This document shows, piece by piece, positions 2,439 through 30,300 of a stretch of DNA of 34,761 nucleotides; position 1 is the first letter of the stretch, and each line of letters starts with the position of its first letter. The notes below the pieces were generated by a model. It was not told the origin of the DNA. It ran no database searches and worked only from the letters and a program-made list of their open reading frames with translations. Source of the DNA: a bacterium (GTDB lineage: Bacteria; Auribacterota; Auribacteria; Auribacterales; Auribacteraceae); NCBI GenBank assembly GCA_021161885.1, contig JAGGZS010000023.1, positions 1 through 34,761 of the forward strand, given 5' to 3'. The position numbers were made by a program, and so were the translations under genes.

Positions 2439-3344
2439 ATGATAGCGATTACAGGCATATCCGGTTATATAGGTTTTCATCTTGCCCATTATCTTAAACA
2501 AGAAAAACAAAATTTTTTAGGACTCATAAAAAAAAACACCAATCAAGATGACATAAACCTTCTTGAACAAAATAAATTCCAATATAAATTTGTGGATTTC
2601 AACGATGAAGATACAATGGCGCAAGCTCTTAAAGATGTCGACATTATTGTCCATTTAATAGGCAGTATTTATCGTCCGAAACAAATGACTATGGAACAAA
2701 TGCACAAAGATATAACATCTATAATGGTCAGAGCGGCGATAAAAAATAAAGTAAAAAAAATAATCTATATCAGTGCAATAGGCTCAAAAAAGGATGCTGA
2801 AAGTGAATATCATAAAACAAAAGCCCTTGCCGAACAGGAAATCATCAACAGCGGTATCCCTTATGTTGTGCTGCGGCCTTCCTTGATTTTTGGAAAAATG
2901 TACGGCAGGAGAAACAGTAAACTGATAGATAAATTAGCGCAGTCAATATCTAATCTTCCGTTCATTCCTGTAATCGGATCAGGCAAAAACAAACTTCAAC
3001 CCCTTTTCGTTATGGATCTGGCAAGGTGTATTTTCGAATCAATTAACCCGAAAATAACCGGCGTTACCATAGAAATTGGGGGTCCGGAAATATTGCCTTT
3101 TGATGTAATCGCAAAAAAAATAGCCAAATCAATTAATATGGATAAAAAAACTTTAGTGAAAATTCCTAAACCTATTGCGGCTATGCTTGCGTGCGTAATG
3201 GAAAAGATAAGCGCCCAGCCGAAAATCACCAGAGACCAGATTCGCATGACCAAAAACGATAACGTATGCAGCTCAAACTTATCGGGTAAATATTTTTCGT
3301 TTACAAAAAAAAGTATGAACGATATTCTGAAGCATCTTGTTTAA
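2439..3344 (+). CDS. NAD(P)-binding atypical short-chain dehydrogenase/epimerase family protein (NmrA / NDUFA9-like)
   Basis: 301 aa. The N-terminal Rossmann motif is IAITGISGYIGFHL (GxxGxxG) and the catalytic-type motif is YHKTKALAE (YxxxK). The overall layout matches the NAD-dependent epimerase/dehydratase fold. Confidence 0.85.
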   Translation: MIAITGISGYIGFHLAHYLKQEKQNFLGLIKKNTNQDDINLLEQNKFQYKFVDFNDEDTMAQALKDVDIIVHLIGSIYRPKQMTMEQMHKDITSIMVRAAIKNKVKKIIYISAIGSKKDAESEYHKTKALAEQEIINSGIPYVVLRPSLIFGKMYGRRNSKLIDKLAQSISNLPFIPVIGSGKNKLQPLFVMDLARCIFESINPKITGVTIEIGGPEILPFDVIAKKIAKSINMDKKTLVKIPKPIAAMLACVMEKISAQPKITRDQIRMTKNDNVCSSNLSGKYFSFTKKSMNDILKHLV

Positions 3345-3379: not shown

Positions 3380-6300
3380 TTAAGCTGCTTCATCGAAATG
3401 AGCGCTTTGGTTAATAGCATCTATAACACTGCTGTTGACCGACCTTGCGTTTGCCTCAATCCGCAGGTATTTAGCAAAATTCTGCGTAACCGACATAATT
3501 CCAAGCGATTCAACACGGTGTATGAAATCGCCTAATTTAGGCGGATTGTCTTTATTGATCGCGCGTAATCTGTCGTATACCTGCTTGATAAAATAAAGAT
3601 CAAGCTGCTCCTTAACTTTTTGTTCCAATAATGTGAATTCTGTTCCAGATACAGCCTGATGTGATATAAAATGCATAAAAACAGATGCGACATCTTGTTT
3701 TTCCACTTCTTTAGCCATAAGTTTTTTGAAAAGCAGGTCGCGAATAACCAAATCTTTTGTCCTGAATTTTTGTTCGACTTTCGCTTTAAGTTCCGTATCA
3801 AGCGAAGGCAGGACTTTGGAATAAAAAATATCCGTTAAACTGCTGTATGTAAAAATTTTTCCTTTAATAGCGTCTGCCTGCCGTATAAAATCGTTAAATA
3901 CAGCCATAATATCGCCTATTTTAGAATTACTATCTTTATCGAGTATAATACGGTCGCTAATATCTATTATTTTTATATCATTAGGAACTTTTTTAGACCC
4001 GAATGACCTTAGAATATCTATCATAAACACAGCTTTGCTATTTTCAAGCATTCCCTGCATAACCAATCCTGAATCGACAATTTGGTAACGCAATCCGTTA
4101 TTCTGTGAATACTCGGCAAGTTTTCCGCCGGGTATATCTATCATCTTAACCCTGCCGGCAATATCTGATTCGGAAAGATCGGGATACTCGGTTTTTATTA
4201 ATCCTATAAGCTCGTCAACCGATTTGACTGTAACGATGAAATCAAACAGATTGTTACTTGAATCACCTTCCCTGCGTTCAGTAGTTTTATCAAGTTCAGT
4301 TTTAAAAATGCCTGTATTTTTATCATTTAATGAAATAGCCACAAAAACAGCCTGACGCCCTTCATTTTTACGGTTTTCCATCTTAAATTTCCTGAATGTT
4401 TCTTTTAGCATAAAATTAGCCGGAGACAATTCGCCTAATATCAATTCCTTCGGGAACAAGAACAAATCGGGTTTAGACATTGTTGCCTTAATAACATTTA
4501 CGGATTTACGCAAAAGGCTTTTTGAGATTTCAAAATCAGCCTTATCAGGAACATAGTCGAAGTCGATATCAAGTTCTAACTCGAAAATTTCCCGGAGCTG
4601 TGAGATGATTTCATTAATCTCAACCGGAGATAGCGGACGGGTTTTCTTTATATTGCCCATTTTAATAATACGGTCTATCAAAGGTTTATATCTTTGGTTC
4701 TCTAACCCGTTTAATGTTAAGGTTTCTATTATGTCAGGCAGTTTATTGCCGAAATAATCTCGTAACCGCGCGGCTTTTATATTTAAGTCCGCATCAGTTA
4801 AAGCAGAATTTTCAGGCAATGATTTCAGGTATTCCCTTGCGCCTATATGGATAAGAACTTCTTCCATACCGCCTCTTAATAATGCATCGAAAAACCCCTG
4901 TCCGAGAAAAATCACTTTTTGCCCGCCAATTACGCGCGCGTCTGTAAAATGGTAACCGTTTAATGTTGTACTGATTCCGTAAGAGCCGTCATTAGAAGGT
5001 ATAACCGCTATCTTAGCTTGTTTAATGTAATCAAGCACATTTTGCAGTAATTCAGCGGTTTTCGGATTGTCTTTGTTCAATGTATTGATACGGGTTTGTA
5101 TAGAATTCATACCTATTTCAAGCATTTTCGCTTTTAATCCGCGAGGCACAAGATTTTCCACTCCGCCCGCTTCATCAATTGCCGTATTTATTATTCTGTC
5201 CGTGAATTCCTGAGCGTCAACCGCTGATTTTACAATTTCCTCTTCAGTTCCGCCTATTTGTTTCTGAACAAATTCGCTTACAAAATCCTGAATTGATAAA
5301 AGCACAGCTTTGCTTACCGGTTTCTTATCAGATAGTTTAAACTTTTCGATCACCTTGCTGTACATGCCATTTACAAATGTATCGAACTTAAGGCTATCCG
5401 CATCAAGGTTATATAATAATTGCGACACAGGTAAATCGGAATAAAGCAAAATATAGCTTCGCAGTTTTTCTATGGTAAATGAACTTACCTCTACAGGTCG
5501 CTCAATGTTTCTGTTTTTATCTATAGATTTATAAGTTGCGTTATCTGCGGGAGTTTCCATATTGTCGTCAGCCTCAAGTTCTGTCTTTGAAGTAACCGGC
5601 GCAATCTGATTGGCTATTGTATGATATTTTGCTTCCAGTTGTTGGGCATCTTCAATATTTCCGGATATCCATTTCCTTAATTCACGGGTTAGTTCAGCTC
5701 GTTTAGCATCGGTTAAATCTTGCCATGATTTATCGATAATACCAGCTATATTTAACGCTTTTTTCTGCCACAGGTGCATTTCGACCACTTCATGCATGGC
5801 TAATGTTTTATCATAGGCTTTTTCGGCGATATAGATGCAATTAAGCTCTATTCCTGCATGGGCGCGTTGTACCCCGGTTAAAACCGAAGCGTTCTTAACG
5901 ATATAAACTCTGACAGGGTTGCCGTCGTAAACTATTTCTCCAGACCGGATAAGATTGCCGGATAATACTGCTTTACGAATAGCCTTGTTCACATTGCTGT
6001 GAGAACCGGCTTTTATGCCCACATCAGCTATATTAATATCGTCTTCGTGTTCTCCCACAACGCCTCTCATGGTATTATCGCTTTTTTCTTCCTGTATATA
6101 TTGAGCATGAAAATGTTTCTGCATAAGATGCACTATCTCCGGGTCGATAAGCGACATAGTTATTGAGCCCGGATAAAATTGTTCAAGAATATTAGCGAAA
6201 TTAGTGAACGTATCGGACAACAATCCTTTACCTCTGAGTTTATCTTTATTTTCCCTTCCAAGTGAAAGGTAATTCAAATGTGTATATTTGAGTTCAGGAT

Positions 6301-9300
6301 AGATTGTAAAATCTATGAGGAATAAACCGTAATCCTGCGATAAATTACCGCGTAAAACATTGTAAAGGTTCTTTTTAATATTACCAGCCGTATCAACAAG
6401 CACGCGGAAATCTATTTTATCTTTTTGTTTTTCACTTGTAATAAGAGTAACAACCTGAGCCTCGGGAACATCTTCAAGCTGCGCCTCAACCATAACTTTA
6501 TTTGTCATAAAAGAACTATGTGTTTGAATAACTAAAGCTGTGTTCCCGTTATTAATTTCTGTTAAGGTATTCCACAAATTAGGGGCAATCCATAAAGAAA
6601 CGGGCAGTTTAGTTATGTTCTCCTGTGTTAATTCCTTATTTGCTTGTTCTATTTGTGATGCCGGTTTTTGCGGTTGTTTGGTTTGCATTTTTTTCTGTAT
6701 TTTTTGAGAGGATTTTAATTCTTCCGCAGATATTCCTTCAAGGGTTATCTCACCTTTTTGTTGATTTGTTCCGTCTTTGATGGTGCCTGTCATTTGATTA
6801 TTAAAATCAGATTCATAGGCAGCGTCAAAATATTTAGCCATTAAATGTTTGCTTGACGGATGAAGTATTTCGGCGGTTATTTTACCCGGATAATAATGTT
6901 CAAGAATATTCACAAACCGCTCAAAAGTATTTATCATCAGTTTATTGCCCTGAAGCTGATCGGTATAAACGCGTCCAATACGCATATTGTTGAAATGAAT
7001 CATATCCTCTTTGAAATATTTTCTAAATGCCAGTAAATATTCGAATTCACCATCATAATCTACTCTGCCGCTTATAATCTGTTTTATATTTTTACGCACA
7101 TAACCCGCCTTATCGGCTATAACCCTATGATCTACGTAATCGGAATTAAAATCGCTCATAATAATGACAACCATTTGATCGTCGTCTATTAATGCTAATT
7201 GGTCTGTCAGGTCTTTTCGATTCGCCGCATTGATGCCATGCGCCTGTATAACTACAGGAGGTTTACCGTTATTAATGGCTGAAAAAGCATTCCATAAATC
7301 ATCTGCAATCCAAGCCGCAGCAGGCAATTGGTCAATAGTTTCATCTTTAATTTCATATTTATCCGTTTGCTTTTGAGATATGTCAGTTTCATCGAAACCC
7401 GATTGTAAATTAATGTATACGTTTTTATTTACAAGAAATTGTTTTAAAGAATCGGCTATGTTCTCAAGTTCAGTTTTATGCCAAGTTCCTATTCTTAATA
7501 TTTTGTCTTTACCTTTATTTTGATCGATTATATCCGTTAAATCTGCGTAAGCGCTGGATAGAAAATCTAAACCGTCTACCTTATCTGATGCGAGAATTCC
7601 CTCAAAAAGCATTTTTACTGTAAAAATGTCGGTATCAAGAGTCGATGACAATTGCGGATAATTATTTTTAACTATGCCGGATACTACATTATTGAAATAC
7701 CGCGCCATAAACATTAATAAATCGGAATATTTATCTGTTGATGATACGTATCCCAAGTCGACAATAGCCGCATTATAACCTGCATCTTTATCACCGGAAA
7801 CCATTATATTGCTGGGGTTTCTGTCATAATAAAGTTTAATGAAATTGAAATTTTTATGTACTTGATACAGTGCTCCGACTCCGACTTTTAAAATATCAGA
7901 TAACCGTTTCATATATTCACTGGCTTTTTCATTTGGTTTCATCATTAACTGTCCTGAAATTATTTTGCCGTCCCTATTTTCAACCAACATAGGTTCGCCT
8001 GGCAAAACAGATTCTGTATACACATCAAAAACAGGTTCAGCAGCAATTTCCCCGGGTTTAAACGCTCGTGAAGCAACCAGCGGCACAAGATCGGTTTTTC
8101 CTTTTCCCCTTTTTTCTCCATAAGCAAGAATAAGGTTAATATTTTCTATATCGAATTTTGAATCCGGACGCCGTTTGGATTTTAAAATAAACTGCATCGG
8201 CTGGTGTTCGCCCTTAACAAAAACAGTTATTTTATGGGCATATTTAAAATAACCTCTGCCTATATAATCGATATGAATGGATTCAATCATATCTTCGGTT
8301 ATATCTTTACGGTCAAACAATACGAATAATGTTCTTCGCAAAAGATTAGTTTCCTTTAAAGACTTTGTTATTTCCTCTGTAATTTTCGGACCGTTATTGA
8401 CAAGTCCGTCCTCATTATAAAAATCGGGAAAGGTACCGTTATATTTTTCAGAATAAGTTACAGTCCACTGCATACGTTGTTTTTGTTTGGTATCCGCCAC
8501 CTTTGGCATAAACTTTTTTATAACCCGCCATCCAGCTGTTGTTTGTTCTATGCCGGCGTTATTATCAAGCATATTGTCTAACATTGTGTAGAGTTTATCG
8601 TTAAAAGATTTTGCCTTTTCCGCGATACGTTTATCTTTAGCATTGTCTATCCACCATGACAACTCCCGTCTTGCTGTTATAAAATCGGTATTGCGAGAAT
8701 ATGGAGTATCAACTAAACTTTCAAACAAATTAATAATCTCTTCAGCGTTTGGAGCGTAATCAAAAGCATATTCATGCCGGAACTGATCTAACTGGAATAA
8801 AATAAGTTTTAAATGTTCCGACTCATCACGCGATCTGAGCAGGCCGCCTATTTCTAATCCCATCGACTTAGCGAGTTTGGAAATCAACTCATCATAAGGC
8901 AATGTAATATCCATATCGTCAAGTATTCCTATCATTTTCGCAGGCAAAGTTCCGTTATCAATAAATGTTAATACATCAATTAAAAAGGCTTTATTGGAAA
9001 ACGCCGGTTTGATTTGTTCAATAAAATTTTCAAGCGGCATTTTCGCTTTCTCCAGCCCGGACAGAAGCTGTTGCAAACTTTCCCTGAACTGTACGCTTTC
9101 CCATACCTTTAATTCTGATTCATCTTTAGGGGACAACCCTGCTTCATGGAGCAGTTCATGACGCAGGAACATTTTGAATAATAACTCGATTACCACCGGA
9201 TTTTTTATTTGAAAAATAGCTTTGTTTATTCCGATAAAATTATCGTCCAGATGATTTTCAGCTATGCGAAACGATTTAGTCAGCATAACAAAATCTATTT

Positions 9301-12300
9301 CACTTCCCTGAAGATTTTTAAGTATTTGTTCCTCGCCTGTTAAAATATCTTTAATCCAAGTTTCTATCATTTCGTTGGTAACAGGCGCTTCATGTTCAGA
9401 ATCGGCAAAATCATCATCGATTTTCATAGTGAATTCATAAGGTGTTCCGTTTTCAGTGATCAAAATAGGTACCTTGGCATAAGAGATATTCGCGAGTATC
9501 TCATTTAAACCTGTATAATTATTTTTGTGGAGCTGAAAATCATCACAATGATACTCAGGCGCCGGTATCCCGCCCATAAAAAAGCCTATTCCTGATAAAA
9601 TTTTAGCTAAAGGACCGTCCAGCTTCTTCACAGCCGCTTCTACATCGGGAGTTAATTCAGGATATAAACCGGCATATAATTTTAAAGTCGGTATATCTTT
9701 CCTGTTACCCAGTTCACCAAGAGCCTTTACTGTTTCCCGTTTAATGGAAATCCGATCCGCATAAAGCAGATGCCTTAAAATAGGAGCTGATTTTTTATCG
9801 CCTTTTTCGAGCATCATCGAAGGTATCTCTATCAGTACGGCCCTGTCATCGGCGGTTAAATCACGGCGGTCAAGTTTTCTTAATATATCTGCGAGAACCC
9901 CGATATAATTATCGCCGGCTATATCAATCATGGCTTTTAGAGCGGCTTGTTTCACATAAAACGAATAAGGGCTGTTTTTATCTACTATTGAATTGCCAAG
10001 TGTATTCATAGCATCGGAATATTTGTTCCTGCCCATAGCCAAAGCGGCTTGTTCTTTTTCGATATTATCGCCGGCTATATATAACCTTAAAAGCTCTTCA
10101 TTAAAAATTTTTTTCTTTAATGTTTCAACAGCTATTGTACTTTGAAAACCTTTATTTTTGTAGACGAGATGAAGTAAATGGCGAACCGCGCTTTTATCGC
10201 CTTTTCTTCCAAGCAAAATTGCCGAAGCGTCAACTATGCCTGCTTCCTGATTATTTAATCCCAGCCTTAAATACGCTATAAGATCATCGCCGTACTGCTC
10301 GAGAATATCTATCAAGTCATTAAATTCCAATGAATTTTCCGCTGTTGCCATTAGGTTCAGACTGTTCCATATATTATCAGACAATTTAAGCTGATTGGAG
10401 CGGTCAATACCGCGGGATTTAAGAAAATCGCCCGCCGCTTTTCTTACATCAGGATTCGGGTGTATAAGCAGATTATCAGCATCAACGTTCAAATCGGCTT
10501 TTAATTTATCCAAAACTTTTATTGCCAATACGACCGAAGTATCATCGGATTGTTGTGAAATGATTTTCCGCATAAACGGGATAACGGATTTATCGGCAAG
10601 TTTAAACACTGTTTTTTGAGCTTGCAGAGCTACTTTCTCGGAGCGGTCATTTATCATAGCGAACACATCCGCCATTGCGTCCGCATTACCGGTTTGGCCA
10701 ATAACATACAAAACTCCTTCACGGATGTTGGGGTTTTCCTTGTTCAGCGCGGTAATCAATAACGGTAACGCCTTGTCTTTAACAGCGGTTAAAGTATCTA
10801 CGGCAACGCTTCTATCTATAAGATTAAAACCAGCGAGACGGTTTATATTTTTTCTTATATCCGATTGCGTAACAGAATTTTTGTCTACAATATTTTCAAG
10901 CGCCCTATTCTCAATGGAGTACCCTATCGCGTTCAGTTTCAGCATTTCGTTGAGTTCCTTGAACACACTGGCTGTAAAATTTTCAGAAAAACCCCTGTTT
11001 GACATTAACGAGACAAACGCTTTCTGGTTAAATGAAGTGCCTGAACGCAAAGCCTGTTTAAGGGCAGGAGCGAAAACAGCGAGAAAATCGGTTACAGGAG
11101 TATAGCTGTATTTACCGTTAATTACGGCAGGAACATTTGTTTTTAGGGTAACTTCCAAATCAGCGGCTATGTGCATAAAGTTCAAGACCGTATCATACGA
11201 TTTTTTCTGGTCAAGAATAAATGTTTGGATTGCTTCCGCTTCTTCATGTGATAACCCCGCAAGATGAAACGCCTCATGTAGAACTACTACGGATTTTTCT
11301 TTATCAGTAAGAAGATTAGCGAATTTACCGCTCATATAAATATTATTCCTATCCTGATAATGTCCGTAATGAGCCGCAGCATATCTATTTCCTACCCAGA
11401 ACAAGATATTATCTGCCGGCAGGGAATAAATTTGCGTATTGTCAAGCGCTGTTGAAATATTGTCGATAAATTTATTAAAATCCGATTCAGAGTTTATTCC
11501 CTTTTCCTCAAACATTTTGTTAAGAAGGGGATTAACTGATAACTCGGCATAATTAAGTTCGGATAATAACGATTTTGCCTGTTTCCTCTCTTCCTTAAAA
11601 GGTAAAGGCTGAGGTTTTTTATCAAATAATTTTTTTATCATCTGGTTAAATGCGTCATGGCGGTGTTTGTCTGTTCCGCAAATATTTCCGAAAGACAGAT
11701 TATCTGCCTGATTTAAAGCCGCTAAGCGAACATCAGGCAGCTCTTTCCTGCGGGACACGGATAATTTTAAGTCTTTATTAGATAAAGCGTCATTAAGCGC
11801 AGTAAGAAACTCTTTAGCGGTCTTATACCGTTCGGTCTTATTTACCGCTAAAGATTGTTTCAAAATTTTTGTTATTTCAGTTCCCAACATAGATTCCATA
11901 AAATCGAAATCAAAATCACCTGATTGTATTAAGTCTGCCGTAAATTTGGTTTCGTCGAAATTGCGTAATTGGTCTGTTGATAAAAGTTGAAGTTTGGCGG
12001 ATACCGGATGGTGTCCTGTTAAAAGTTCGGCGAAAATAATGCCTAAGATAAACACATCGTTCTGCTCACTTAAAATTTCATACATCGTTTGTACTACTTG
12101 CCGATTTATCGTATCACGCAATTTATTGTTAATTTGTGTAGGCACTGATACATCAAACGGTTTAAGCTCATCGGCTATTTGCGGCATAACCACATTTATA
12201 AGAGTATTATAGGACGTGCTATATTTAAGTTCGGATTCCGTAAAGACGGATTCAAAAATAATTTTAATATTTTTTAATTGAGCGATTATATCATCAGCGG

Positions 12301-15300
12301 TTTTTAACGAACTGATTTTTCTTAATAAATCCTGCACCTTATTTTGCGCATTAGCCGCGTCAATCTTTTCAGGTGAAGAATAAAAAATATTTTTAGCGGT
12401 TAGCGATGGTTCTGAAAAAGGGCTGCTCTGACCGATTTTTAACGCTTGCGATAATCCTGTAAGAACTAAGGTATTGTCTGATCCTATAAACATATCAAAC
12501 GGGGTGATATCGTTTAAAACAATTTTTTTATCGTACATACCGATGAGCTGTTCTAAAACAGATTGCGCAAACGATAAAAGCGTTTCCGGCGAACTGATAT
12601 TTTTTGTTTTTTGCTCCATTGTTAGTGGATTATCTAATTTAATTGATAGAAAAGGGTTTTCTTCAAGCAGGTTATCGCCTGTAATTGCAGTTTGCTCGGG
12701 ATACATAGTTTTTGTTAAACTCATTTCCCGCTGCCAATCTTTAAATAAATTTTCAAGCTGTGTTCTTGAGAATCCGTCAAAGAGAGGAAGTTTAATCATT
12801 TTTATAAGAACAGTATTGCCGTTTTTATCCTGTCCTCTAAAAACAATGCTTTTATTATTTTCCCTGACAACATTTTCAATAGAATAATCTCCGGCTTTAC
12901 CGCTTAAACGGATGATATTTTCTTTTACTATGGCAGAAGAATATTTAGCGTAAAAAGTAACATTGTTAATCAATTTCTCTGCGACTTTTTTGTGCATTAA
13001 ATTCAGGTTTGTCGCTTTATCTACTTGTTTTATCATAGATGTTTCATTGCGGATTATTGTTTGGAAATATTTTTCAAGTTTCTGGAAATCTTCTAAAGTT
13101 CGGGCATTGTTAATTCTTGAAATAAAATCGGTCTTGATACGGTCACTGGCTAATCCGGGTTGTCTGTTTCCTGTGCGGTTAAAAACAGATTCAAGGGCAA
13201 GTGACGCCATATGCGGAAGCTCGTAAGCGGATTCGTCAATCTGCGACCTTAACATCTGGGCGAAAACCGTTGTGTTTGATGTTATATATTCAACAGGCAG
13301 GTAAATATGTATTTCACCGTTTCTTTTATTTGCTAATGAATCTACCCCTATATTTTGTAAATCGTTTATGCTTGCCAAATGTAAAATTACTGTGCCTGAA
13401 GCGGCAGTCGGGCTAATCTTTACTGTTTTGATACCCTCAGGCGAATGATTTATCTGTTCAATAATATTGCCAAGCATATCCGCAAGATCGGACATATAGG
13501 TATCTGACAAAATAGTCATCATACTTATTTGTTCGCTTATCTGTTTGCCGTCTTGTTTAATCCATCCGCTTAAAGTTGATATATAACTTTTTAAGCTGTT
13601 CGCCATCTTTGGAGTATATGAATAATTGTCCCAAGAGGTAGTAATAGAATTTAATGTTTCCGGATCAATCAGCGGAGCTTGCGCCGTCCATTGCGGTTCT
13701 TTTTTTAATAAACCTGAAAGAGAAGCCTTAACTTGCACCTCAATTTTATGTTCTTTATCTGTTTGGATATCCGATAAAACAACAGTTTTTTCACCAGAGT
13801 AAGCAGTACCGGTTTTCTGCTGAACTTTTTGCCATCCTTTACCTTCAGTCCACAACCATCCTTTAAGGTAATTTGCTGCGAGAATTTTTCTGACGGCAGC
13901 ACGATTGTAACTAAAAATAGGGTTAGATGAGTACTTCGGAGTATCATCATTGCTTGTAGCGAAGGCTATTATCTCAAGAATATTTGTTAAATAAATGTCT
14001 TCGGTTTTACCGTTTTTAATAAGATTTATCCTGATGTCATCAGGAGTCGAAAAATATATTCCTCCAACAATGAGTGCCCAGAACAACTGCTTATTATTAT
14101 CTATTGCCCATTGCAAAAATTGAAAAGGAATTTTTTCGATCCGGTATCCGTCTTTTGTTTCACCAAGATCGAAAATTTGATAATTTTCAGGCGTTTGTTT
14201 GTTATATTCATTTATTGCGTTTTTAAGTTTTTTTGACGGGTAAAAATTCATATTAACATTTACGGAAAAACGAATCGTACGTAGAGAATCTTTTATAGAA
14301 TAAGTATTACAGCAAGCGAACAGGATTCTCATTATATCGTCTGCCGGCATAATTTTTTCAAGATCGTTTATTTTATCCGGTTCAAGCACTGCCTGCTCCA
14401 TTAAGGTCAATAACGCATGATGACCTATGTACTCATGAATAAAAGTTTTACGCGGGGTTTTATCGGATACGAAAATCTCTCCGTGACGGCGCCATCCTTT
14501 GCGGACTTTATTTATCCCTTTAATCCGGCTTTTAAATATCGGTTTAGCCGATAGCGCTATCTCGTTGCCCCAGTTCGGTAAAGAATTCACTATTTCATCT
14601 GGGATATCCTGCAGTTCGGATAAGATAAGATTAAGATTATTAAGCAGATAAAACCGTTGGTCTTCGGTTTGGAGTTCGTTTGCGTCAAGGAAAATCGATG
14701 CGTTAATTCCTTTTTTATGCAGTTGTTGTATCTGTTTTATGATGCCTTCTTTTTTCAATAAATTGAAATCAAGCGAATGAAGCATACCGTCGGCTTGTTT
14801 TTTATCTTTTGCATCATGTCCTGTGCCGATAGTATCGTTGAACTCGCTGTAAAGCCAAATAAGGGTTTTTATATCTTCGATAATGTCTGTCAAGTCAACA
14901 TCTAAAGTTTCGTTTAATTGCGTTAATTCATCTTTCAGGTTTTCATATTGCAAAGCAGCATCATCTTTAACGCGTCCGATAGCGTCTGTGCGTGAAGTCA
15001 TTGCTTTATATAAATCATAATTAATAAAAATAGCTGACGATATTTTGTCCGCTGATTCCCTAACATAACGTTCTGTTAATGTCCTAATTCGAGCGTTTCT
15101 TTTTTCAATAGGAATATCAGTGTTATTTTTAATATCAGACAGAAGGGTTTTAAGTGATACTGTTTCGTTATTATAATTTATTTTCGCATCACGGCTTTTC
15201 TGCAGATGTTTCCAAAAGGCGTCAACCTTAGCAAAATCAATAATATCTTCCCCAAACTCAACCGGGTCAATAACTCCGATATCTTTTTGGTGGGCAGAAA

Positions 15301-18300
15301 ACATTTCTGGATTTTCAGTTTTATTTACGACAGCGGGAGAGGTTTTATAAAGATCAACCCATGCCCTGAACCACAGGTTTTTGGGGTTTTTAAACAGTTT
15401 CCTTAAAAGGTTATTCCATATGACTGCTTCCTGACTTTTTTTTGCTATAACCCCTCGCGCCCAATCCCTGAATTCATGTTCAAGAACCGTTTTTAATACT
15501 TTCATGCCGAAAACACGGTCGTTACCGCTCATGTTATCTACATATTCCAAGGTAGATGTGTTCAGATAAATTGTTTTTCTGCTCAAACCGGCATGAGCTA
15601 ACGCATCGCCTCGGAAAAAAACACCTTGTTCATCAACAAGCAAAGTCAAGAAAAAATCTTTAAGATAATCTTTATATTCCGAAGACCTTAAAATCAATAA
15701 AGCTGTTTTAAGAGCTTTTTGCAGTTTTACCCTGTATTGCGGGTTATTGAGTTTAGTTTCAAAATTTTTTCTTGCCGTATTAGATATTTTTAGATTAGCT
15801 TGTAACTTAACGGCTAACTGGGCTGTTGATAAATCTTTATCAAACAAAGTATAGACGAGTTCATCTATATTTGAATAATCCAAAGCGATACTTTTAAGGT
15901 CAATACGGATTGCGTCGCCGTTTTCTATGAGTTTAGATATTTCATTATCCACATTTGCCCTAATTTTCCCGCGGGCTAAACTTTGATTATTACGATTGTT
16001 GTCTGTTTCATCCTGTACTTGCGCTGTCTGCGCCATAATTTCAGGCAATATATTCCATAAAGCGGTAATTGCTCCGATTGAGAACCCAGCCATCGTAAAA
16101 ACTAAATTAATTATGGTTGACACAGGTTCAGCAGTGTCAATCATATATTGAGAAGCCATAGTCGAGAGAAAAGCTCCCAAGAAACCGAAAAATGTTCTTT
16201 GAGTTAATAAATCTGGGTTTGATTTTAGTTGCCTTATTACTCCTGCAACTAACAGTCTTGACGGTTCAACGTATTTATTTTTAAATTCTGCCCATAATTG
16301 AGGAAACACAGGCATAGTAATTGGTCTTGCCAATACCGGTTTAAGCGCGTTATAAGGGCGAATAAGAAGGAAATCACCAACTGTAATAAAATATTCAAAA
16401 AATGACGCGATAAGTGAAGAAAATAAAAAATTAACAGCCATAACAGGCGCCATTAATACGGTTTGAACTTTCTCATATCGACTAGCATGCTTGCCGAATA
16501 TAAAAATTGGAAGCGCAAATATCGCATAACCTAAAACTAATGCCCCAGATATCATCAGCAGCATATCAACTAAATGAAATATCGGTATCATTTCAATGGT
16601 CATAAACCCGAACATAGCAAATACAGGCACAAGCGCTGTATACATAATTGTTGTTATAATAGCCGGTATACGCATGTCCTTAGGCATTTTTGCGCCTTTA
16701 CGCATTAGCTGAAACATTCCGCCCGACCATCGTCTAGCCTGAATCCATTTTCCTTTCAATGTTTCGGGCATATCTGTTATAACCCTGAAATCTCTACGTC
16801 CGAAAAACTTAAATTTAGAATTTTTATTTTGCCTCAGCAAACCGGATAATTCGGCATCGTCAGTTTCAAAAATACCCGAATGCTTTTGTAATGCCCTAAC
16901 TAGATAAGGCACCAAATAACCACCGCCTCCCCCTGGAACCGACATAGTAAAAAAGGTATTTAACGACCTTAACCATGCAAGATAAAGAAAATTTATTTTT
17001 TTAAGAAGCGAGGTGCCTTTAGGCAAAGTGCCGAACGAGGTAGATAAAGGCAGTATATTGGCTATGATACGGTTCCCGTCTTTTTCAACATGACCTAACA
17101 TATTGGCGGCGTCTTTGAGCGCGCCTGATATATCTGTGCCTTCAATGTAAGAATCGCCGTCCATAATAAAAAGTTTTTCAGGCAATTTTTTTATTTTTCT
17201 ATGTTCAGCAAGTGAATATAACCCTAACACCGCATCTCGAATAGCGCCTGTTCTATGCCCGTTTTTATCACGTAAAATCATATTAAAATCATAAACCTGT
17301 TCACCGGTTTCCGGATTAATATAGTTTTCCCATGAAGCAAGTTCGTTTCGTGTTATGCTTTCAAGAGCTTGTAACCCTTGGCGTTCATCATCGGTTATAT
17401 CTGCTTTTGCAAGCCGTAAGGCGATATCTTGCAATTTCGCGTTGAGCAGTTTAATATTATATTTCCTGTTAAAGCGTTTGAGTAAATCTTGTGTTCCGTC
17501 GGTTGAGGCGTCATCAACTATAACGAGTTTATCAAGATATTTTCCTTCATACGCTTTTTTGAGAATATTTTCCATAAGGTCAGGATCATCTCGGGACAGA
17601 AGGTTAAATACCGGAGTAACTATAAAAAAATCCGATGCGAATTCTAAATCTTTTAATTGATCGGCATATTGGATTTCGTCAAGAGGAAGCGGCCGGAATT
17701 CTTCCAAACTGCTAACAGGTATTTTTGAGGAAAACCGGCGTAAATCTATATTATATTTTTCGCCGTATTTATCTGTAAAATCGGCAAGATTTTCTATAAC
17801 AACTTGTTGTTCCTTACCAAATATTTTTTTAAGGTTTGTCTTGTTTAAAGCTGCGGCTCTGCTTAATAACGCCAAAACTTTACCTGCAGATAAAACCCCC
17901 ATCTCATCAATTAATTGTGAAGATATAACAAACTCCGGCAACCCTTTAGGCTGTATTTTGAAATATTCTTTTATTTGTCCGTCAACTTTATGCAGTTCCC
18001 TTATTTCTTTCGGACGATTTTGAAGTTCCGCCCAAAATTTTTCTACCTGTTTGAACGATATTGGTTTTCCTTGAAAATAAACAGGCTCAACTTTCCCTAT
18101 ATCCTCCGCGTGTCCGCCCCGCAGATAATCGCGGTACTCGTGTTCGTAAACCGCTTGCAGAATACGTTTTGAGTATGCCTGATCTTCAGGCTCCATTTCG
18201 GCGATATACATCAGGGTAGACAAATTCAGGTAAAAACTTTTATTTTCAGCACCCACATGCGAAAGGGCTTGCGCGTTATAAAATTCACCTTCCCAATCAA

Positions 18301-21300
18301 GCAGAACGGTTAATGAAAAATCGGAAATTTTGTCGATTATTTTTGAAGACCGTAAAACATCAAACCCGAGAACCAACGATTTTCTCAGCCGTTCTTTGCT
18401 CATCGGGTCAGAGAGCTGTTTTTTTAATTCTTCTTGGGCAGCAGCCGGCAAATCCGTAAATAATCGTTGGAGATTAACTGATGTTTCTTCTGGCGATCCC
18501 TCAAAAAGCGGATTTATTATATCTTCCGATACATTATTGTTCAAGCTATCAAGGGGTACTCTTACCGCTTTGCCGGATAAAATATGTTCTCTTATTATTT
18601 TATTAATATCCTCAACAGATTTTCGCTGAAGGCTTTTTTCTGAACGCACAGTTTGGGGACTTTTTAAAAATTTTTGATCGCCATTAACGGCTTTTTGTGC
18701 GCGGGCAAGTTGTTCTGCCATTACAATATCTATTGTTTGCGACGTTAACTGCGCGTAAGACTCAATAAGGTCTAACGGGAACAAAGAAGCAAACGTCGTT
18801 CCAACCGCTTCAGAATCAAATTTATTTATAAAGGAATTGATATTTTTGCCGTAAGAATTTTTAACGGCTTCGTCAAGATAACTGAGCATATCAAGAGCCA
18901 GCTCAGAATGTTTGTTTAATAAATCTGAAATAATATTTAATGAATCTGTTTTGTCTTTTATATCACGTTCGTTACGTATAGTGGAATTCATATAAGTAGA
19001 AGATACAAGCACATCAACAGCCTCAGCGAAACTATCAAAGCCGGCAGGCATTTGCGAACTGAGTTTAAACTGAAGAGCAAGTTCTTTGTTATTATATAGT
19101 TTTACATCGGACTTGACAATTTGAGATAGAGAATATCCTGTTGAATCTTTAAATAACCGATTAAAAGATGTAAGCGTTAAAGGAATATCCATCTGCTGAG
19201 ATGTTTCAGCAACAATTTCCTCAAGAAAGGCTGTCTGAGCCTTACCGGAAACAGGGGTTCTTAGTAAAGAAAACATAAAATCGACTATTTGGCTTGCTGT
19301 AGATTTATCTAAAAGCTGTTTGCCGGTAAATGACTGCGATAACCGCAAAGCCAACATAGATATTCTATCTATTTCAGTCTGATTAATATACTGCTGGTTA
19401 TTTTTTCGTTTAAAAAACTGTTTTGCCTGCGGATTATTACGCAGTAATGTTTGCGGATATAAACCTGTAATATCCATAACAAACTGTTCAAAATCAGAAT
19501 ATGCTTTATTTGATTTTAATAAAATTGTATTAAGCGCAAGACTGCGCGCCTGATTGTCGGGAAGGTTAGAAAATATTTTCATAAAACTGTTTACAAACCT
19601 AATGGGCGTAACATAAATCTGACCGTTTAAAGCATATTCGATTATTTTAATATCTGTATCTATATTAAACGATTTCAATGGGCCATCCAACTGATTTGAA
19701 ACTTTTTCCGTATATAACCCTACAGCCCAAGCGACAGCCTCATCGCCTAATTCACCGTTAATAGTCTTTAGCGTAGCAGGGGTAAATTTTTTATTTTGGT
19801 CTGTAATCCAGCCATTCATTACTGACAACAGGGTATTCCAAGGATTATCTTTATTGTTCTCAACATATTCCAGTTCAGCTTCGCTAAGAGGCAATCCATT
19901 GGCTATTAGATTAAGATTTTTTATGGTTCTGCGCTGTTCTGCGGTTATATCTTCAGATTGAGAGATAAGATCGTTAAGATCGTTTTCGGAGTAAATTGTC
20001 CGGTCGCGTAAAATTGAACGGATAATCTGTTCGAAATCCATTTTCTTCACTATCTGTTTAACATTGCGCTGTGAAAGAGTATCGTTAAGTTTATTCCATA
20101 ACCGCATATCAGCGAACTGCGCATACCGTTCGTCTTGTCCGAGTTTATTCATCAAACTTTTTAACGCTGAGGCGATTGCTTTACCCCGTTCGGTTTTGTT
20201 AGGAAATTTTTCCGTTACAAAATCAATATATTTTTGCCTGAAATTTTCAGTAATATTTTTAAAAGGAACTTTAAGTATTCCGACTGAGAACTCATTGATT
20301 ATTCCGAATACCTCATTTTGAATTTCCTCAAAATCAGAGGTTGTGCTGTCTTTTATTTTAGATTTAAGTTTATCAACCACACTATCGGCAACTTCGGGCG
20401 ATACCAGTTCCGCTACAAGAAGAAGCAGGGGTAACTGATACATCATTTTAGGTGACTTGTGCATCAGGTATTTAAAAAAATTGGTTTTTGCGTACATATG
20501 GTCTATAAGTTCAAGATTAAATATTGAGTCGAGATCATCAAACAAGCTGTTTTTTTCGTCTTCCGTTAAAGTTTCAGTAAGTTCCAACTTAGCGACTATT
20601 GCCATTAAAGGCGCGAAAACAGCTGATGCTTCAGCGGAATAAACATTATATAGAAGCGGACTTTTTAGGGCGTCATCAACAAAAAGTTTCATTTCATGAG
20701 CTTTTGAGATTTGCACAAGTAAAGCGGCAAGTTTTTCTACTGGAATATCTTTTATTTGATTAAGCAGCACATCAGCGACCGGATTTTCCTCTTTATTTAT
20801 GTTAAGAAGTTTAAACATTCTTTTAACGATATTTATTTCTATTTCATTATTTTCTATATAAATAATATGCGCACCTTGCGGATAACCAGGAAAAGGATAT
20901 GTTTTATCGCTCAGGATATACTGGGCGGGAGCAATATTATAAAACGGATCCTTAATTCTTTTCCCTCTTAAGATTAAAACAGTCTCCTGTTTGCCGTTAA
21001 TGGTTACCTTATGTTCTTCAACGTTATCGTTATAGAAATCAAAAATGTATTCGCCGTTATAAACAATACCTATATGAAAAAAGAAATCAGCATTTATTTT
21101 TGTTCGGAACTCCATAAACATTTCGTTTCCTGCTAACCGGTCGTTAGCGTCTCCGCTTCGCATTAACCTGCCTATTTCAAGCGCATTGGCCATGAAATTT
21201 TCAATATGCTCCGCAGCTTTTTTAAATCCTAAACTTTGGATTTTATCAGTTAAATTTTTAAGGTTTTTAATCGCCTCTGGATCAAGTTCCTGTTTGTTTT

Positions 21301-24300: not shown

Positions 24301-27300
24301 TATTGTTTTTTGAGTTGGTTACCCACCACAAAAGCTCTTTTTTTACAGCATTAAATTCATTGGATTGAGAAAATTCAATATCCGTTAATGTCTTTAATAA
24401 TCCGTTAATTGCCATTAAATCGGCAGATGTCAGCTTCTCAAAATTTTTAAAATTATCTAATGACGATACCTTTGACCTGATAACAGGCATAACAGACTGC
24501 GCTTTTGCTTGCGGCGGATAATGATGGATTAGAACTAACGGTATATTTTCCTGTTCAGCCCGTTTTCTGGCTTTATAAAAATTTGAGTTCGGATCGTTAA
24601 ACGGCGATAACGAGTCGCTGATATCAAGATTTGTATTCGGATCGGTTACCATAACAGCTATTCCTTTTATCGCTCCTTCCGCTAAAACTTCATTAACCGG
24701 CATATCTGTAAAAGGGTTAGGCTTAATTTTTATTTCACCGTTATCTACTTTTTTATTAAACTCAATTCTTTTCGCCCGTTTTTCTTTATTCCCTTTCGCC
24801 TCGGCGATATAATCTCTCAACATTCTTAATCTGGCGTTATCTTTTGCCCGTTCGACAGTAAAGCGGTTCATAAAATCGGTTAAATAATTTTTTAATCTTA
24901 TTGGAATTTGCGCGGATATTCGGTCTTCAGCCGACATATACACATAATACTGTTCATATTCCCCGAGCATTTCCAGCACATCTTTATATCCGTGTTTTTC
25001 AAGCAACGGATTTCGTATCTCATTAATTATGCTGTCCATACGAGCCTGATAAGTTAGCGATGACACATCCTCGCTATGCACATTTAATCTCGACGGCTGT
25101 TCCGCTTCTGAAGCAATGCTGAACCGGTCTATGGTTACAGGAAACATTTCGTCGATTAACCAGCTTACCTGTCCGTTTTTAATTGTATCCGTCTTAAAAT
25201 ATCCATGATACCCTGCGGTCTCTAATGACGCGCGAACTGTGCTGTTTTTCGCGTTAAAAACGGAAAACATATTCACGCCCACATCAGATTTATATTCAAG
25301 GCTGAAATACGGATTATTCAATTCAGGATATATGTTGATAACCTGAAAATTTCTATTTATATCAGAAGCAAGAGTATAAATCGGCAAAGCGGAAGTTACG
25401 TTAACATAATTTTTAGCCGCAACATCGTGCCGTTTATCAAAAGACAAATTTATGCCGGCTGCTGCTGCTGTCTCAAACAATTGTTTATCAGCATCTATCC
25501 AATACAATCCTGCTGGATCAGCGTTATCGAGCAAGACGCCGAGCAAAGTATCCAACCGGCGCTGCCGTTCAAATGGGACAGGCAATGCGTTGATAATCGT
25601 TTTACGCTGTTGTGTCGATAATCCGCTTGAAGCAAGAACGGCAGAGATTATAAAATCGAATTTTTTATTATAATCAGCAATATTTCCTTCGGTTTTCAGA
25701 TTGGTTAACTGGTCGGACAACAGCAAGATATATCCTATCAATTCATCAGGCACTTTTATATTTATAGAGCCGATACTTATTACCCCTTTATTATTTTTAA
25801 TTTGTTCAAGGAAAGAATCTATCTGAATATTTACTGCTGTTCCCGCTAATTTTTTGCTGCGTATTTCACGCAGTACAGGCAGTTCAGCGAGTCCCCATTC
25901 ATTTTTAACTAAATTTTCCAATCTCAAATACAGCTCATCAGCCGGCTGCCCGTTTAAATTATCAAAAATACTGCTGTATAATTTATTAAGCAAATGAATA
26001 TCTATATCTGAAATGGAACGGGTAAACTTTTCGGAAACTAATTTTGATATAACAATATTCCTTAATTCGCCCGATTTAGTGCTATTGAGCATATCCGCTA
26101 ACTGTTTTATCTGACCAAAAATATCCTGATTAATAGATTGTTTCTGAATAATAGAATTCATAATAGAATTAACAAGATTATCTGCTTTTGCTTCAAATTT
26201 TGATTGTATAACAGGTAAATTAGTAAAATGTTCACTGGCAAAATCTTTTATTTGATTACGCAAATTTTTATAATCATTGATTTTAAACAGCAGCCCGTCG
26301 GTTTGCACATCTGTTTTCTTGGTACCTGTATCGGAGTCAATTAACAGCGAATCAAGTTCAGATAAAGATTGTTTTATAAAATTCAAACCATCCGCTTCAT
26401 TGATTATGGTATTTAAAATTAAAATTAATGTATTTTCATCGCCAATACTTTTCCTTACATCAATAGGCATCGGGGCGATTACATTATTTTCGACAACCTG
26501 TTGTAATAACAATAAAAGATCAAACGATTTATTAATGTCAGCCCGTTGATTTCCCGCGTTATCAGCATTAATAACAGCAGTTACGCCGCCGGACTCATCT
26601 AATTTTAAAACAATTCCCTGCGGCTCAATATTTTTAAAACTCCATTTATTGTCTATATTTGCAGACATCCTGTATAAAGCGGATACAACCGCAGGCAATA
26701 CTTTACGTACACGAACGCGATAATGCGCTGCAGTCTCATCAGGACGAATGGATACAAACCCCGATTGTCCGTTCACCGCGTTAGAACCAACTAAAGGTAT
26801 TCCTTTTATAACCGATTCCCCAGCGAACTTAAATGCTCCACTGGCTGCGCCTTTATTAATTCCTTCAAAAAATACGCCCTGCACCACTGCGGGTTGGGTT
26901 GCGTTTTTTCCTGCAATATCCATTATTTCTTTATACAAAATAGTTTTCATAGATTCGTTAAAAACCCCTTTTTGGATTCCCTCATCTACGAAAACTTTTA
27001 ATGCCTCTAAGTGATTTAATTTATCCGTTTGCGATAATTGAGTATTTTTAAGGGCTTGAAGATGGTTGCCGATATCCCGTAAAATGTCTAAATTTTTATT
27101 TCTGGATTGTTTTTCGGATTCAGGGATAATTTTGTTCAATCCGATAACGTCGTCATCTAACAAATAAACTAATCTTTGCCCCATAATCAACCCGTTTATT
27201 CCGGGGATATTGGCGATTTGCGCGAAGATTGTTTCACAAGCGGATGGGCTTTGATCTGCTGACAATTCAGGCTGAATCAATCCGGCAAGGTAAGGATAAG

Positions 27301-30300
27301 TTTGAGACGAACCGTAATTATCGGCTACGGCAATAATTTTTCCTATAACTATTGAATCCATAATTTGATTGCGGTCGCTTTTGTTTAATGCGTCTAAAGG
27401 CAGATCGAAATTGTCTGTCAAATAGGTATTTAAAAAAGTTTTATCTGAAGTGGATATTTCAATACCCTCATTAATATTTTTCAATAACCCGTAACTGCGA
27501 TTATCATTTTGCACTTCTGTTTTAAAATCATCCCCGATTTTAAGTTGAGTCTTATTTATAATATATTCTACCGCCTTTTGTTCTAAAGACGATAAAACCG
27601 AAAATCCTGAATCTTCTTGTGTTTTTTCAATAAAAGCGTTAACAAGCTCAATACTCCTTTGTTCGTATCCTAAACTTAACGCAGCACCTTCCGGCGCTGG
27701 TGTGAAGTATCCTAACCCGCTGAAATAAATAGCCGTTCTCATCAAAAGAGATGATCTCGCTTGATTCTTAAATTTAATATTGTCAAAAAGATTTTCAACG
27801 AAAGAAAAAATTTCATTTAAATGATGTTCATTGTGGAAAGTAACATCGCTGCGCCTACTCTTAGGGTTAGCCATATAGTCAATGACAAAATTTCTTACTA
27901 ATTCAAGATTTGGGTCAGCGCTGTATCTTTTAAGAACTTTATCGATGTTTTGTGCGTTTCGCTTACTCAATGAAGATTCTATTGTTTCGGTTTTGTTTTG
28001 GATAACCTCGCCAACAGGACTTGTTAAAGAAGATTTTAATTGGTTTACAAGAGAAACATTTGTTTTTATGATATTCATCAAATTAGTGTCTGCTAAAACT
28101 TTTTTAAACACATTTTTTAATAATTCCCGTTTCTCTTTGCCGGTTCGGTTATCGGAATATTCGCTTATCAATCGGTTTAACAATTTTTTTATTTCAGAAT
28201 CGCTTAACCGCTCCCCTTTACTGAGCAGCTCACCTGCCATAGGGATATCGGTATCCGCCAAATTTATTTTTATATTTAAAAATTGTTTTAATTTATCCGC
28301 AGCAGATGAGGTTTGGGTTACAAGGGATGCAGCAGCGGGAAGCGGTTGCCCGATTACAGTATCAGCGCTAAAAAGAACCTGCCTAACCGTAGATATAAAA
28401 TTATTATTTCCTTCAGCGGATAGAATCGTCTCATAAATATTATTTTTGAATTGAGTGCCGGGCTGTTGAGTTTGTCTTAATACAAAACTAAACGGTTTTT
28501 CGTATCCATCGATATGCACAGTTATTAAATGAGAATACTGGTGTTCATCTTTTCCGAGAAACTCCACTTCAATATTGGATATTGCCTCTGGAGTTATGTC
28601 TATTAAGCCGTGGGCAAGAAAAAGCATTTCCTGAACGATATGGGTGTTTTTCAAAACATTTTCAACACTTTTAAAAATTTCAGGACCACGGTTTGCGCCC
28701 ATTACAGGATGATCAAACTCTTTGCTGTTTGCGTCATAGGCTGTCGACGGGGATATTTTCCAATTCTCTTTATCTATAGAATCAGCGAGTTTAGGGATTA
28801 TTTCAGATATTCTTGCATCCATTTTCTTAAATGCTGATTTCGCAAAATTTACTATCAAGTCATCTTTAGCGTTAAGTATCCACCATACGATTTCTTTACG
28901 AACAGCAAGGAACTCATCGGCATTAGTAAACGGTATTCTTATTAGATCGATAATCAAATCCGTTACTTCATTTTGTTCCTGATAAGATAATTTTTTCTCT
29001 TTATATTTTGATAACGATTCAGACGCTACGGCTATTTTAGAGAATACATTTATGGTTTCGGTAGATTTTTTTTCTTTAACGATTTCAGCTGCTGTAATGC
29101 CCGCTTTTTTATCGAATTGATGTTCAAGCCGTTTGGCCTTTTTTATATCCGATGCTATATGGTCTCTTAAACCGTTGCGAAGTTCAGCTCTTTTAGCTGC
29201 GGTTAAAGTATGCCAGCTGACAGGTTCAAGTCCGGCGAGTTTCATTGCTTCATTCTGCCACATAATAAGTTCCAATGCTTCATGCAGTGCGAGTTCTTCA
29301 GTAAAGGCGTTGCCCGCGATATAAACCGAATTTCGTTCAAGCCCTGCGTGTCCGCGCTGATTGCCGACGAGGATATTTTCACCTTCAATCACATAAACTT
29401 TAATTCGTCGTCCATTTACAACTACATCGTCCATTCGTTTTAGTTTACCGTCGGAATATGCTTTTCTTATCTGGTCGTTGACTTCCTTGTGGGGACCTGC
29501 TTTAAGCCTAATATCCGCAAAATTTATATCTTTTGCCTTTGAAGAGGGTTCGCTGCTGTCATCAATCGCTTTTCGTATTACCGTTCCGTTTACCTCAATC
29601 ATACCGTTAGAAAAAACTCTTGTAGTTGTTCCGTCGTTATGAATTATTCTCAACACGTTGCCTTCGCCGTCTTCAAACCCCCATAATTTGACATTAATAA
29701 ATCCAATAGCGATATCATTATCGGTTTTAAAATTTACTTCGATTTTATCGGTTTCAATTTGTGATATAACTTGAAAAAAAGTGTTTGACTGGGGAACTCT
29801 ATCTGCGTCAGCTATTTGTCTAATCTGTTCAACACCTGATGGTTTAGGTGGCAGTTCGGAAAAATCTGATGATTCCGGCGGGAAAGCATCCAGCACAGGT
29901 CTTTGAAGTTCCTGCATTTTTTTTCTTGTTTGCTCAATTTGTTTGGCGAGGTCTCCTGTTTCTTTAACATGAAGATCAATCTTTAGGGTGTTGCCTCTTC
30001 CTAACTCCCTAATAATGTCAAGTTTATAGGCTTGCTGGTCTACGATAAAAGAAGTTGAAAAATCTCTGGGCAACTTTTGGAAAAAATTAAACCAAAACTG
30101 AGCGGGGACTCCGTTTTCAATATCAATTGAAGTTATTCCTGCTTGTTCAAAATAGTTCCTGATATAATCCGGCAGCGATTCAGCATCTTGTGTGATATTC
30201 CAAACATATCTTGAATCTTTTGTTTTTTCACTTAAATTAGCGATGACTTTAAGTATAGGGCTAACCGCAAATTCGTTTCCGTCAATATTGGTTATTAAAT

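Follow-up and report, generated by a model that had tools for sequence, protein, structure and literature searches.

Candidate zincin-like modules of five divergent families within a 9,700-residue protein of an Auribacterota bacterium

Introduction

Zincin-like modules in very large multidomain proteins are known, with the polyvalent proteins of phages and plasmids as the precedent. These carry one to five interspersed zincin-like domains per protein, for which a release of the neighbouring domains through self-cleavage, or an effector function, was proposed. Their 12 published metallopeptidase (MPTase) clades include some with HEXXXH and some with a conserved His where strand 2 ends (PMC5512222). 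In this study, we analyze contig JAGGZS010000023.1 of a bacterium from the phylum Auribacterota (assembly GCA_021161885.1). Its 34,761 bp, referred to as the window throughout, are dominated by one open reading frame (ORF) of 9,700 amino acids (aa) at 3380-32482 on the minus strand, which was characterized by ORF analysis, Pfam and transmembrane (TM) prediction and in which seven small modules with a His-Glu motif are scattered. We lean towards the interpretation that this giant protein is a multi-enzyme polypeptide, in which zincin-like metallohydrolase modules of about 150 aa, belonging to five divergent families, lie between larger domains.

The modules resemble the polyvalent MPTases in that small zincin-like cores are interspersed among enzymatic domains of a very large protein, and in the predicted order of their elements, an N-terminal helix, a beta-sheet, the His-Glu helix and a further ligand helix (PMC5512222). 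Neither group is specifically related to classical peptidase families. The differences concern carrier and motif. Polyvalent carriers belong to phages and conjugative elements, whereas our carrier is a chromosomal protein with predicted membrane-spanning segments and housekeeping neighbours, and four of its seven module copies have HExxE or HExxD in place of HExxH.

Giant proteins of Omnitrophota, namely the 'Archaeovorins' and others (bioRxiv 10.1101/2023.11.21.568195 and 10.64898/2026.06.07.730766), constitute a second point of comparison. Such proteins share with ours a very long polypeptide on which HEAT, glycosyltransferase and kinase-type domains are tiled, and relatives of our protein likewise occur in metagenome-assembled genomes (MAGs) of Omnitrophota and Auribacterota. 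In contrast to them, our protein has no dockerin or TSP3 signature and is almost wholly without Pfam matches. When both preprints were searched by term, neither zincin nor HExxH modules turned up in them.

Results and Discussion

Seven modules form five families

The modules and three weaker candidates are listed below by window coordinates, strand and position in the protein; they are numbered m1 to m7 along the protein, and the candidates are named w1 to w3.

29087..29545, minus strand: family A, copy 1 (A1, m1), aa 980-1132; paralog of A2, member of a 47-copy family, with an AlphaFold2 (AF2) model and matches in BFVD; motifs DINFAD, H998..VN, QRGH1045AG, SVYIA and H1067-E-ALE1071..WQ, with Asp in place of the distal family His
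5588..6052, minus strand: family A, copy 2 (A2, m7), aa 8811-8965; paralogy and family hidden Markov model (HMM); motifs QRAH8875AG, CIYIA and H8897-E-VVE8901..WQ, with the distal His in 'AKYHT'
17960..18442, minus strand: family B, copy 1 (B1, m2), aa 4681-4841; paralogy and family conservation; motifs ALSH4742VG, SFYLN and EH4781-E-YRD4785, then H4791 at +10 ('GGHAEDIG')
15200..15781, minus strand: family B, copy 2 (B2, m3), aa 5568-5761; paralogy, conservation and AF2 model; motifs ALAH5630AG, TIYLN and EH5669-E-FRD5673, with an insertion of about 50 aa before the conserved 'HQKDIG'
14153..14668, minus strand: m4, aa 5939-6110; family conservation, AF2 model of low confidence; motifs GWRRHGEIFVS, then TFIH6016-E-YIGH6021H
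11033..11518, minus strand: m5, aa 6989-7150; orthologs and sub-threshold Pfam matches; motifs AAAH7038YG, NIYMS and H7069-E-AFH7073-LAG-LSH7079, then the conserved NFMH
8897..9415, minus strand: m6, aa 7690-7862; orthologs and hhalign link to m5; motifs NFIGINKAIF, then RH7775-E-LLH7779-E-AG
20510..21085, minus strand: candidate w1, aa 3800-3991; conserved, hhalign P 0.0035 with m6
13073..13495, minus strand: candidate w2, aa 6330-6470; conserved in orthologs
4607..5095, minus strand: candidate w3, aa 9130-9292; conserved, hhalign P 0.02 with A

The initial annotation had listed seven pairs of a His-containing or basic turn and an HE motif. All fourteen strings are present in the ORF, starting at the indicated residues: RGHAG1043/LHEALE1066, LSHVG4740/EHEYRD4780, LAHAG5628/EHEFRD5668, RRHGEIFVS5998/IHEYIGHH6015, AAHYGH7036/LHEAFH7068, FIGINKAIF7749/RHELLH7774 and RAHAG8873/MHEVVE8896. 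The His of the His-Glu pair is residue 1067, 4781, 5669, 6016, 7069, 7775 and 8897, respectively, and the interval 5615-29530 reported for the series is bounded by the m1 start and the m7 end. Canonical HExxH is found at H7069 (m5) and H7775 (m6) only, just as had been noted.

Self-comparison of the protein identifies m1 (aa 985-1123) and m7 (aa 8815-8953) as paralogs with 44.6% identity (E 1e-38) and m2 and m3 as a second pair (E 2e-25), while no BLAST-level link connects either pair to m4, m5 or m6. The seven copies are therefore treated as five independent families, A, B, m4, m5 and m6. A composite pattern, H[AVTY]G-x3-9-[IVLF][YF][ILVM]-x10-45-HE, occurs five times in the protein, covering A, B and m5, against 0.003 occurrences expected from 2,000 shuffles, and HE..[HED] occurs eight times against 1.3 expected; the significance of the shuffle test is overstated, since the composite pattern was written post hoc, after the data had been seen.

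Relatives in other genomes and conservation within families

Related giant proteins conserve all five families. When genomes were scanned with the A alignment, loci were obtained from Omnitrophota and Auribacterota as well as from one deltaproteobacterial and one unclassified MAG. Two of the giant relatives, on the Auribacterota contig CAXXKF010000011.1 (loci L003 and L004) and in 'Bacterium R3-B46' (L005), are collinear orthologs, both of which contain B, m4, w2, m5, m6, two A copies and w3 in the order of the window. The ORF on CAXXKF010000011.1 measures about 14,300 aa and comprises four A-type copies, and 'Bacterium R3-B46' has an equivalent.

Outside these loci, the A domain is hardly ever met with: searched exhaustively by HMMER with its profile, 1.84 billion representative proteins included only 29 that matched, nearly all of them very long. 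Eight of the matching proteins were scanned with Pfam and show almost no domains. Local HMM searches of these proteins and the loci gave 47 non-redundant copies of A, seven each of B and m4, six of m6 and three of m5. A metagenome scan with the A alignment added one locus, L007 (contig Ga0265292_1000080), where a partial A-like domain is part of a further long ORF (at least 5,872 aa); the same scan with the m5 alignment found no locus, and no relatives were found among viral contigs. A word-indexed search of representative proteins with the concatenated modules or the A alignment gave no match and is uninformative, as this search seems blind to long proteins, a DUF4157 query having returned only proteins shorter than 125 aa.

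In every one of the five families, the relatives retain the His-Glu pair; the block to which it belongs is conserved as well and follows a hydrophobic [IF][YF][ILV] segment. Family A follows the consensus Q-x-[AG]-H-A-G-x4-[IV]-Y..., then H-E-x-x-E-L-x-x-W, where alignment positions H72, H94, E95, E98 and W102 are kept in approximately 44 of 46 copies. In B, the consensus reads AL-x-H-x-G...Y-x-N, then E-H-E-[YF]-R-D, with HE[YF]RD in all seven copies. The motif HE[YFV][IV]GH (HExxGH, i.e., HEXXXH) is invariant in m4 (7/7). All three m5 sequences have HExxHxxGxxH (HEAFHLAGLSH, HEMLHLAGFTH, HELLHLAGFTH), with NFMH conserved about 45 residues later, while HExxHE is kept in five of the six m6 copies.

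The HEXXH/HEXXXH motif of zincins is accordingly present in m5 (HEAFH), m6 (HELLH) and m4 (HExxGH) but not in A (HExxE) or B (HExRD), the extended metzincin motif HEXXHXXGXXH in m5 only. Candidates for a third metal ligand, for which conservation downstream of the motif had been proposed as a check, were found in three families: a His at +10 in m5; a downstream His in all seven B copies, at +10 in those without the insertion (m2 and the P0027 copy) and later in copies with it; and in A a last-helix His about 57 residues downstream of the motif in 37 of 40 copies, which is Asp in m1. The candidate in m6, a Glu or a His located at +12 to +13, is less clear. We infer that the conserved downstream residues of m5, B and A act as metal ligands.

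The weaker candidates proposed in the initial annotation differ in outcome. Conservation was found for w1 (aa 3872/3929), which reads GAHIIYIE, then AH3929-E-MKL, and has no Pfam match; an Auribacterota ortholog has the canonical HELGH and a Glu 22 residues later. Also conserved, though degenerate in the window, is w2 (aa 6388), with GEIHIYLPVEY followed by SQIDES here and by KHQIDS in P0010; its His-Glu is present in two orthologs only (KHELNE..PH) and has decayed in the window. The third, w3 (aa 9188/9211), shows QKVIFLGQGFFD and then EEVLIH9211IG with an invariant His, lacks His-Glu and is probably not a member of the module set.

Links between families and evidence for a zincin fold

Profile-profile comparison was performed by hhalign with expanded alignments in 28 pairwise tests. 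The link between m5 and m6 (P 9e-4) is the sole one to survive correction for this number of tests. Lower ranks are taken by m6 and w1 (P 3.5e-3), A and B (P 4.6e-3), A and w3 (P 0.02), and A and m5 (P 0.032). For m4, no P-value below 0.07 was obtained against any other family, and no significant link was seen between A or B on the one side and m5 or m6 on the other.

The relation of A and B appears in further tests. One P0027 domain is matched by the HMMs of both families. When an A-core HMM was built without the window sequences, B's 'AHAGLSRKTIYL' hairpin was the only other match in the giant protein, and its score of 4.4 bits was reached by none of 500 shuffles; the reciprocal search with a B-core HMM found the hairpin of A (P 0.036). 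Under relaxed hhalign settings, A, m5 and DUF4157 share one register from the hairpin to the His-Glu helix, an alignment that is not significant. Thus, the notion of one recurring module stands only in part: A-B and m5-m6 are linked, while the seven segments largely fail to align with one another at the profile level and do not make up one family.

Structure models cover A, on the basis of a 24-sequence alignment, and the B-m4 region. The AF2 model of A has a mean predicted local distance difference test (pLDDT) of 88.5 and a predicted template modelling score (pTM) of 0.84. It places a helix at 998-1010, five strands at 1014-1056, the His-Glu helix at 1062-1082, directly after the 'SVYIA' strand, and two further helices at 1095-1111 and 1113-1140, the last of which bears the conserved distal His/Asp. 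Iyer et al. 2017 (PMC5512222) give the same topology for the zincin core. At lower confidence, the model of B shows a strand at 5637-5641 followed by the His-Glu helix at 5653-5682. Of the proposed architecture of a His turn, a strand and an HE helix, the models hence reproduce the strand and the helix in A and B, while in m4 only the His-Glu helix is predicted with any confidence and the preceding region is of low confidence.

Compared by Foldseek with the phage protein models in BFVD, the A model has a best E-value of 5.5e-4 (probability 0.98). Seven named zincins are found among its top 50 matches (Metallopeptidase, SprT-like, M48, three IrrE-like and Matrixin) with E-values of 0.045-1.7, SprT-like at 0.098. 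Against the PDB, the best E-value is 1.2 and non-significant; most of the leading entries are M1 zinc peptidases and IrrE. This fold evidence from BFVD and PDB is suggestive rather than decisive, because TM-scores (template modelling scores) are low throughout. Sub-threshold Pfam matches of the m5 orthologs point in the same direction: Peptidase_M56 (in all three), YbeY (3e-4), Astacin (0.028), SprT-like and PhageMetallopep, with no functional class other than metallohydrolases recurring. Concerning SprT-like proteins (PF10263), which had been suggested as a target, m5 is the only match in the window (E 0.11), and with 12.8 bits against a cut-off of 25.6 it stays below the gathering score, so that no module exceeds the Pfam threshold.

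Several observations count against the zincin-like reading. No module, whether searched singly or with its family members, matches Pfam, NCBIfam, PHROGs or PDB sequence profiles at threshold, and PDB profile searches of A, m5, B with m4, and m6 gave nothing relevant except YbeY for m5 at E 0.085. The sole significant BFVD target of the A model is an unannotated phage protein, and the TM-scores of the BFVD matches are only 0.25-0.5, those of the named zincins 0.2-0.5. The B-m4 model has a pLDDT of 67, with hairpins below 60, and its fold search matched only helical bundles and no zincin. A and B are without HExxH in every copy (0/47 and 0/7, respectively). Most pairwise profile comparisons are non-significant, and a self-processing function, discussed below, is suggested purely by analogy. 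Support for the zincin-like reading is thus consistent, if weak.

Alternatively, the modules might be five unrelated small domains that share only a short His-Glu motif on a helix behind a hydrophobic strand, with a superficial likeness to zincins, and that may serve as binding or scaffold units. Such an explanation accounts for the 26 of 28 profile-profile comparisons that are non-significant, the isolation of m4, the lack of curated-family and PDB matches, the weak PDB fold search of the A model, the failure of the B-m4 model to match a zincin and the post hoc nature of the composite motif test. We nevertheless regard it as unlikely. The His-Glu pair is nearly invariant in every family across distant relatives, zincins make up the great majority of the named fold matches of A, all m5 sequences retain the metzincin-type motif over its full 11 residues, independent tests recover both the A-B and the m5-m6 link, and the alignment registers of A, m5 and DUF4157 are consistent.

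Proposed variant sites in families A and B

Within the zincin-like interpretation, the two helix His of m5 (HExxHxxGxxH), m6 (HExxHE) and m4 (HExxGH) would bind the metal and the Glu would act as general base. In the variants A and B, Glu or Asp would occupy position i+4 instead of the second His, and the site would be completed by a conserved His from another part of the module: that of the last helix together with the one of strand 4 in A, and that at +10 in B.

A different view of the same ancestry holds that A and B, i.e., four of the seven copies, together with w2 and w3, are dead pseudo-enzymes that work as peptide-binding or structural adaptors, leaving only m5, m6 and perhaps m4 active. 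It finds its basis in the second His, which is never present in A or B, and in w1 and w2 of the window, which have lost motif residues kept by their orthologs; decay does, therefore, occur in this protein. On the other side, HExxE..W in about 44 of 46 A copies and HE[YF]RD plus His in all B copies are conserved like an active site, while dead sites usually drift, and the extra conserved His of both families are available as ligands. That HExxE in A and HExRD in B hardly vary speaks against simple decay and for a working variant site instead. We consider the pseudo-enzyme explanation quite improbable, and the suggestion in the initial annotation that most copies may be non-catalytic appears doubtful.

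That some modules, notably m5, are non-peptidase metal hydrolases, such as a YbeY-like nuclease or another zinc hydrolase of the HxxxHxxGxxH type, is very improbable: among the Pfam matches of the m5 orthologs, YbeY does have the lowest E-value, and its homolog TM1509 is the best PDB sequence match of the m5 profile, but these matches span the metal-binding helix only, M56, astacin and SprT matches are equally present for m5 orthologs, and m5 keeps the peptidase-type HE, unlike YbeY, in which Gly and not Glu follows the first His.

Comparison with minimal zincins and related peptidases

Regarding single motifs, the HEXXXH clade of the polyvalent MPTases resembles m4 by its description, and their extra strand-end His resembles the AH[AY]G of A, B and m5 (PMC5512222).

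DUF4157 (PF13699), the minimal zincin of polymorphic toxins, is of the same size class as our modules. It shares with A the order of elements, a hairpin of the form 'A-x-A-x-x-x-G/N-x-I-x-F/I-x-x-G-x-Y' followed by HE..H/E..Q, and hhalign aligns both in that register over about 100 columns. The motifs differ, A having HExxE..WQ and DUF4157 HELxHVxQQ. Membership of the modules in this family, of which the initial annotation had found them reminiscent, is not borne out. None of 57 module sequences matches PF13699, even at E-values up to 1-10, and in hhalign comparisons against 120 genuine PF13699 proteins P-values are 0.023 for A, 0.013 for m5, 9e-4 for m6 (10 columns only) and at least 0.4 for B and m4.

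Minimal zincins of the SprT-like, Wss1 and IrrE type are among the fold matches of A, and SprT-like is among the matches of m5, all below family thresholds; in contrast to them, our modules have no zinc-ribbon or DNA-binding part. With metzincins, m5 shares HExxHxxGxxH, and B copies without the insertion read HExxD-x5-H with the same +10 spacing of the His. However, m5 is far smaller than a metzincin catalytic domain, and its conserved NFMH is at most a candidate for a Met-turn. Peptidases of family M49 (DPP III) combine HEXXGH with a second motif, EEXR(K)AE(D), in an enzyme of about 700 aa. An assignment of m4 to this family was rejected, as m4 is only about 170 aa long, no motif of the EExxAE type follows in the alignment and there is no Pfam match.

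Architecture of the giant protein

Pfam recognizes three features only, HEAT repeats, a partial protein-kinase domain and a GT2 glycosyltransferase. More than 90% of the protein has no Pfam match, and rescanning the remainder in pieces added none. These features and the predicted hydrophobic segments, all on the minus strand where a strand is given, are as follows.

aa 9-27, minus strand: N-terminal hydrophobic segment (TM prediction)
aa ~4950-5480, window 16043-17635, minus strand: GT2 domain followed by four to five predicted TM helices (Pfam, TM prediction)
aa ~6805-6890, minus strand: partial protein-kinase match (Pfam)
aa ~7200-7620, minus strand: HEAT repeats (Pfam)

The GT2/TM segment lies in the middle of the protein and is flanked by the two B modules. 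Together with the hydrophobic segment at aa 9-27, its predicted helices suggest a membrane-embedded giant protein.

Two sets of internal repeats were observed in addition, each with three copies: the first at aa 1156-2003, 2674-3065 and 7915-8323, the second at aa 3218-3373, 8331-8495 and 8599-8825. E-values between copies range from 1e-7 to 1e-29 in both sets. Neither set is related to the His-Glu modules, and neither matches anything in Pfam or the PDB. An assignment of the approximately 400-aa threefold repeat (starting at aa 1156, 2674 and 7915) as kinase-like was dropped, as neither Pfam nor PDB supports it. A1 directly precedes the first copy of set 1, and A2 directly follows the last copy of set 2. 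From N- to C-terminus, the order is A1, repeated domains, w1, B1, GT2/TM segment, B2, m4, w2, kinase-like region, m5, HEAT repeats, m6, repeated domains and A2. The modules would thereby separate the larger domains, namely the two sets of repeated domains, the GT2/TM segment, the kinase-like region and the HEAT repeats.

In the N-terminal region at aa ~50-480 (window 30923-32395, minus strand), the strings 'VIVHIKNAH', 'GLEGAEG' and 'ITGGFHTDG' were noticed. They may resemble motifs of the TraB/TIKI/ChaN type, with no Pfam match at E-values up to 0.05.

The neighbours of the giant gene are an IS3-type transposase, an epimerase, a lipid A acyltransferase-type gene, an ACT-domain gene and a peptide deformylase. 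The transposase is located just past the epimerase gene on the 3' side of the giant gene and is the only sign of a mobile element on the contig.

943-2303, plus strand: IS3-type transposase in two overlapping frames, orfA at 943-1278 and 1272-1553, orfB at 1590-2303

The same locus was encountered in a second assembly (L001, ENA ERZ23499350 scaffold_39240) as a fragment of 1.9 kb that ends near the giant gene, which is therefore probably broken up in short-read assemblies.

Possible roles of the modules

By analogy with the polyvalent proteins, the role we prefer is a peptidase activity by which the modules would cut their own 9,700-aa polypeptide into working pieces; alternatively, they might cut target proteins. 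A further-reaching proposal, conceivable though doubtful, is that A and B constitute an undescribed zincin-derived clade, restricted to giant proteins from bacteria of the Omnitrophota/Auribacterota type, with a ligand-swapped HExx[ED] site in which a distal His, from the last helix or strand 4 in A and at +10 in B, takes the place of the usual Glu, and that together with m4, m5 and m6 they are built-in proteases cutting a membrane-anchored polyprotein of 9,700 aa into separate enzymes.

Giant Omnitrophota-like proteins are mostly unannotated, and whether they act as single molecules or as cut pieces is the background question to which these modules relate. Should they be working proteases, the interspersed zincin-like modules would provide a concrete and testable mechanism of processing, an annotation would become available for about 1,500 residues of this protein and for the corresponding stretches of its relatives, and the zincin repertoire would grow by at least two new families of small domains, A and B, whose site is HExx[ED]. 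Should they not be proteases, they would still represent five conserved domain families that are absent from the databases and specific to giant proteins.

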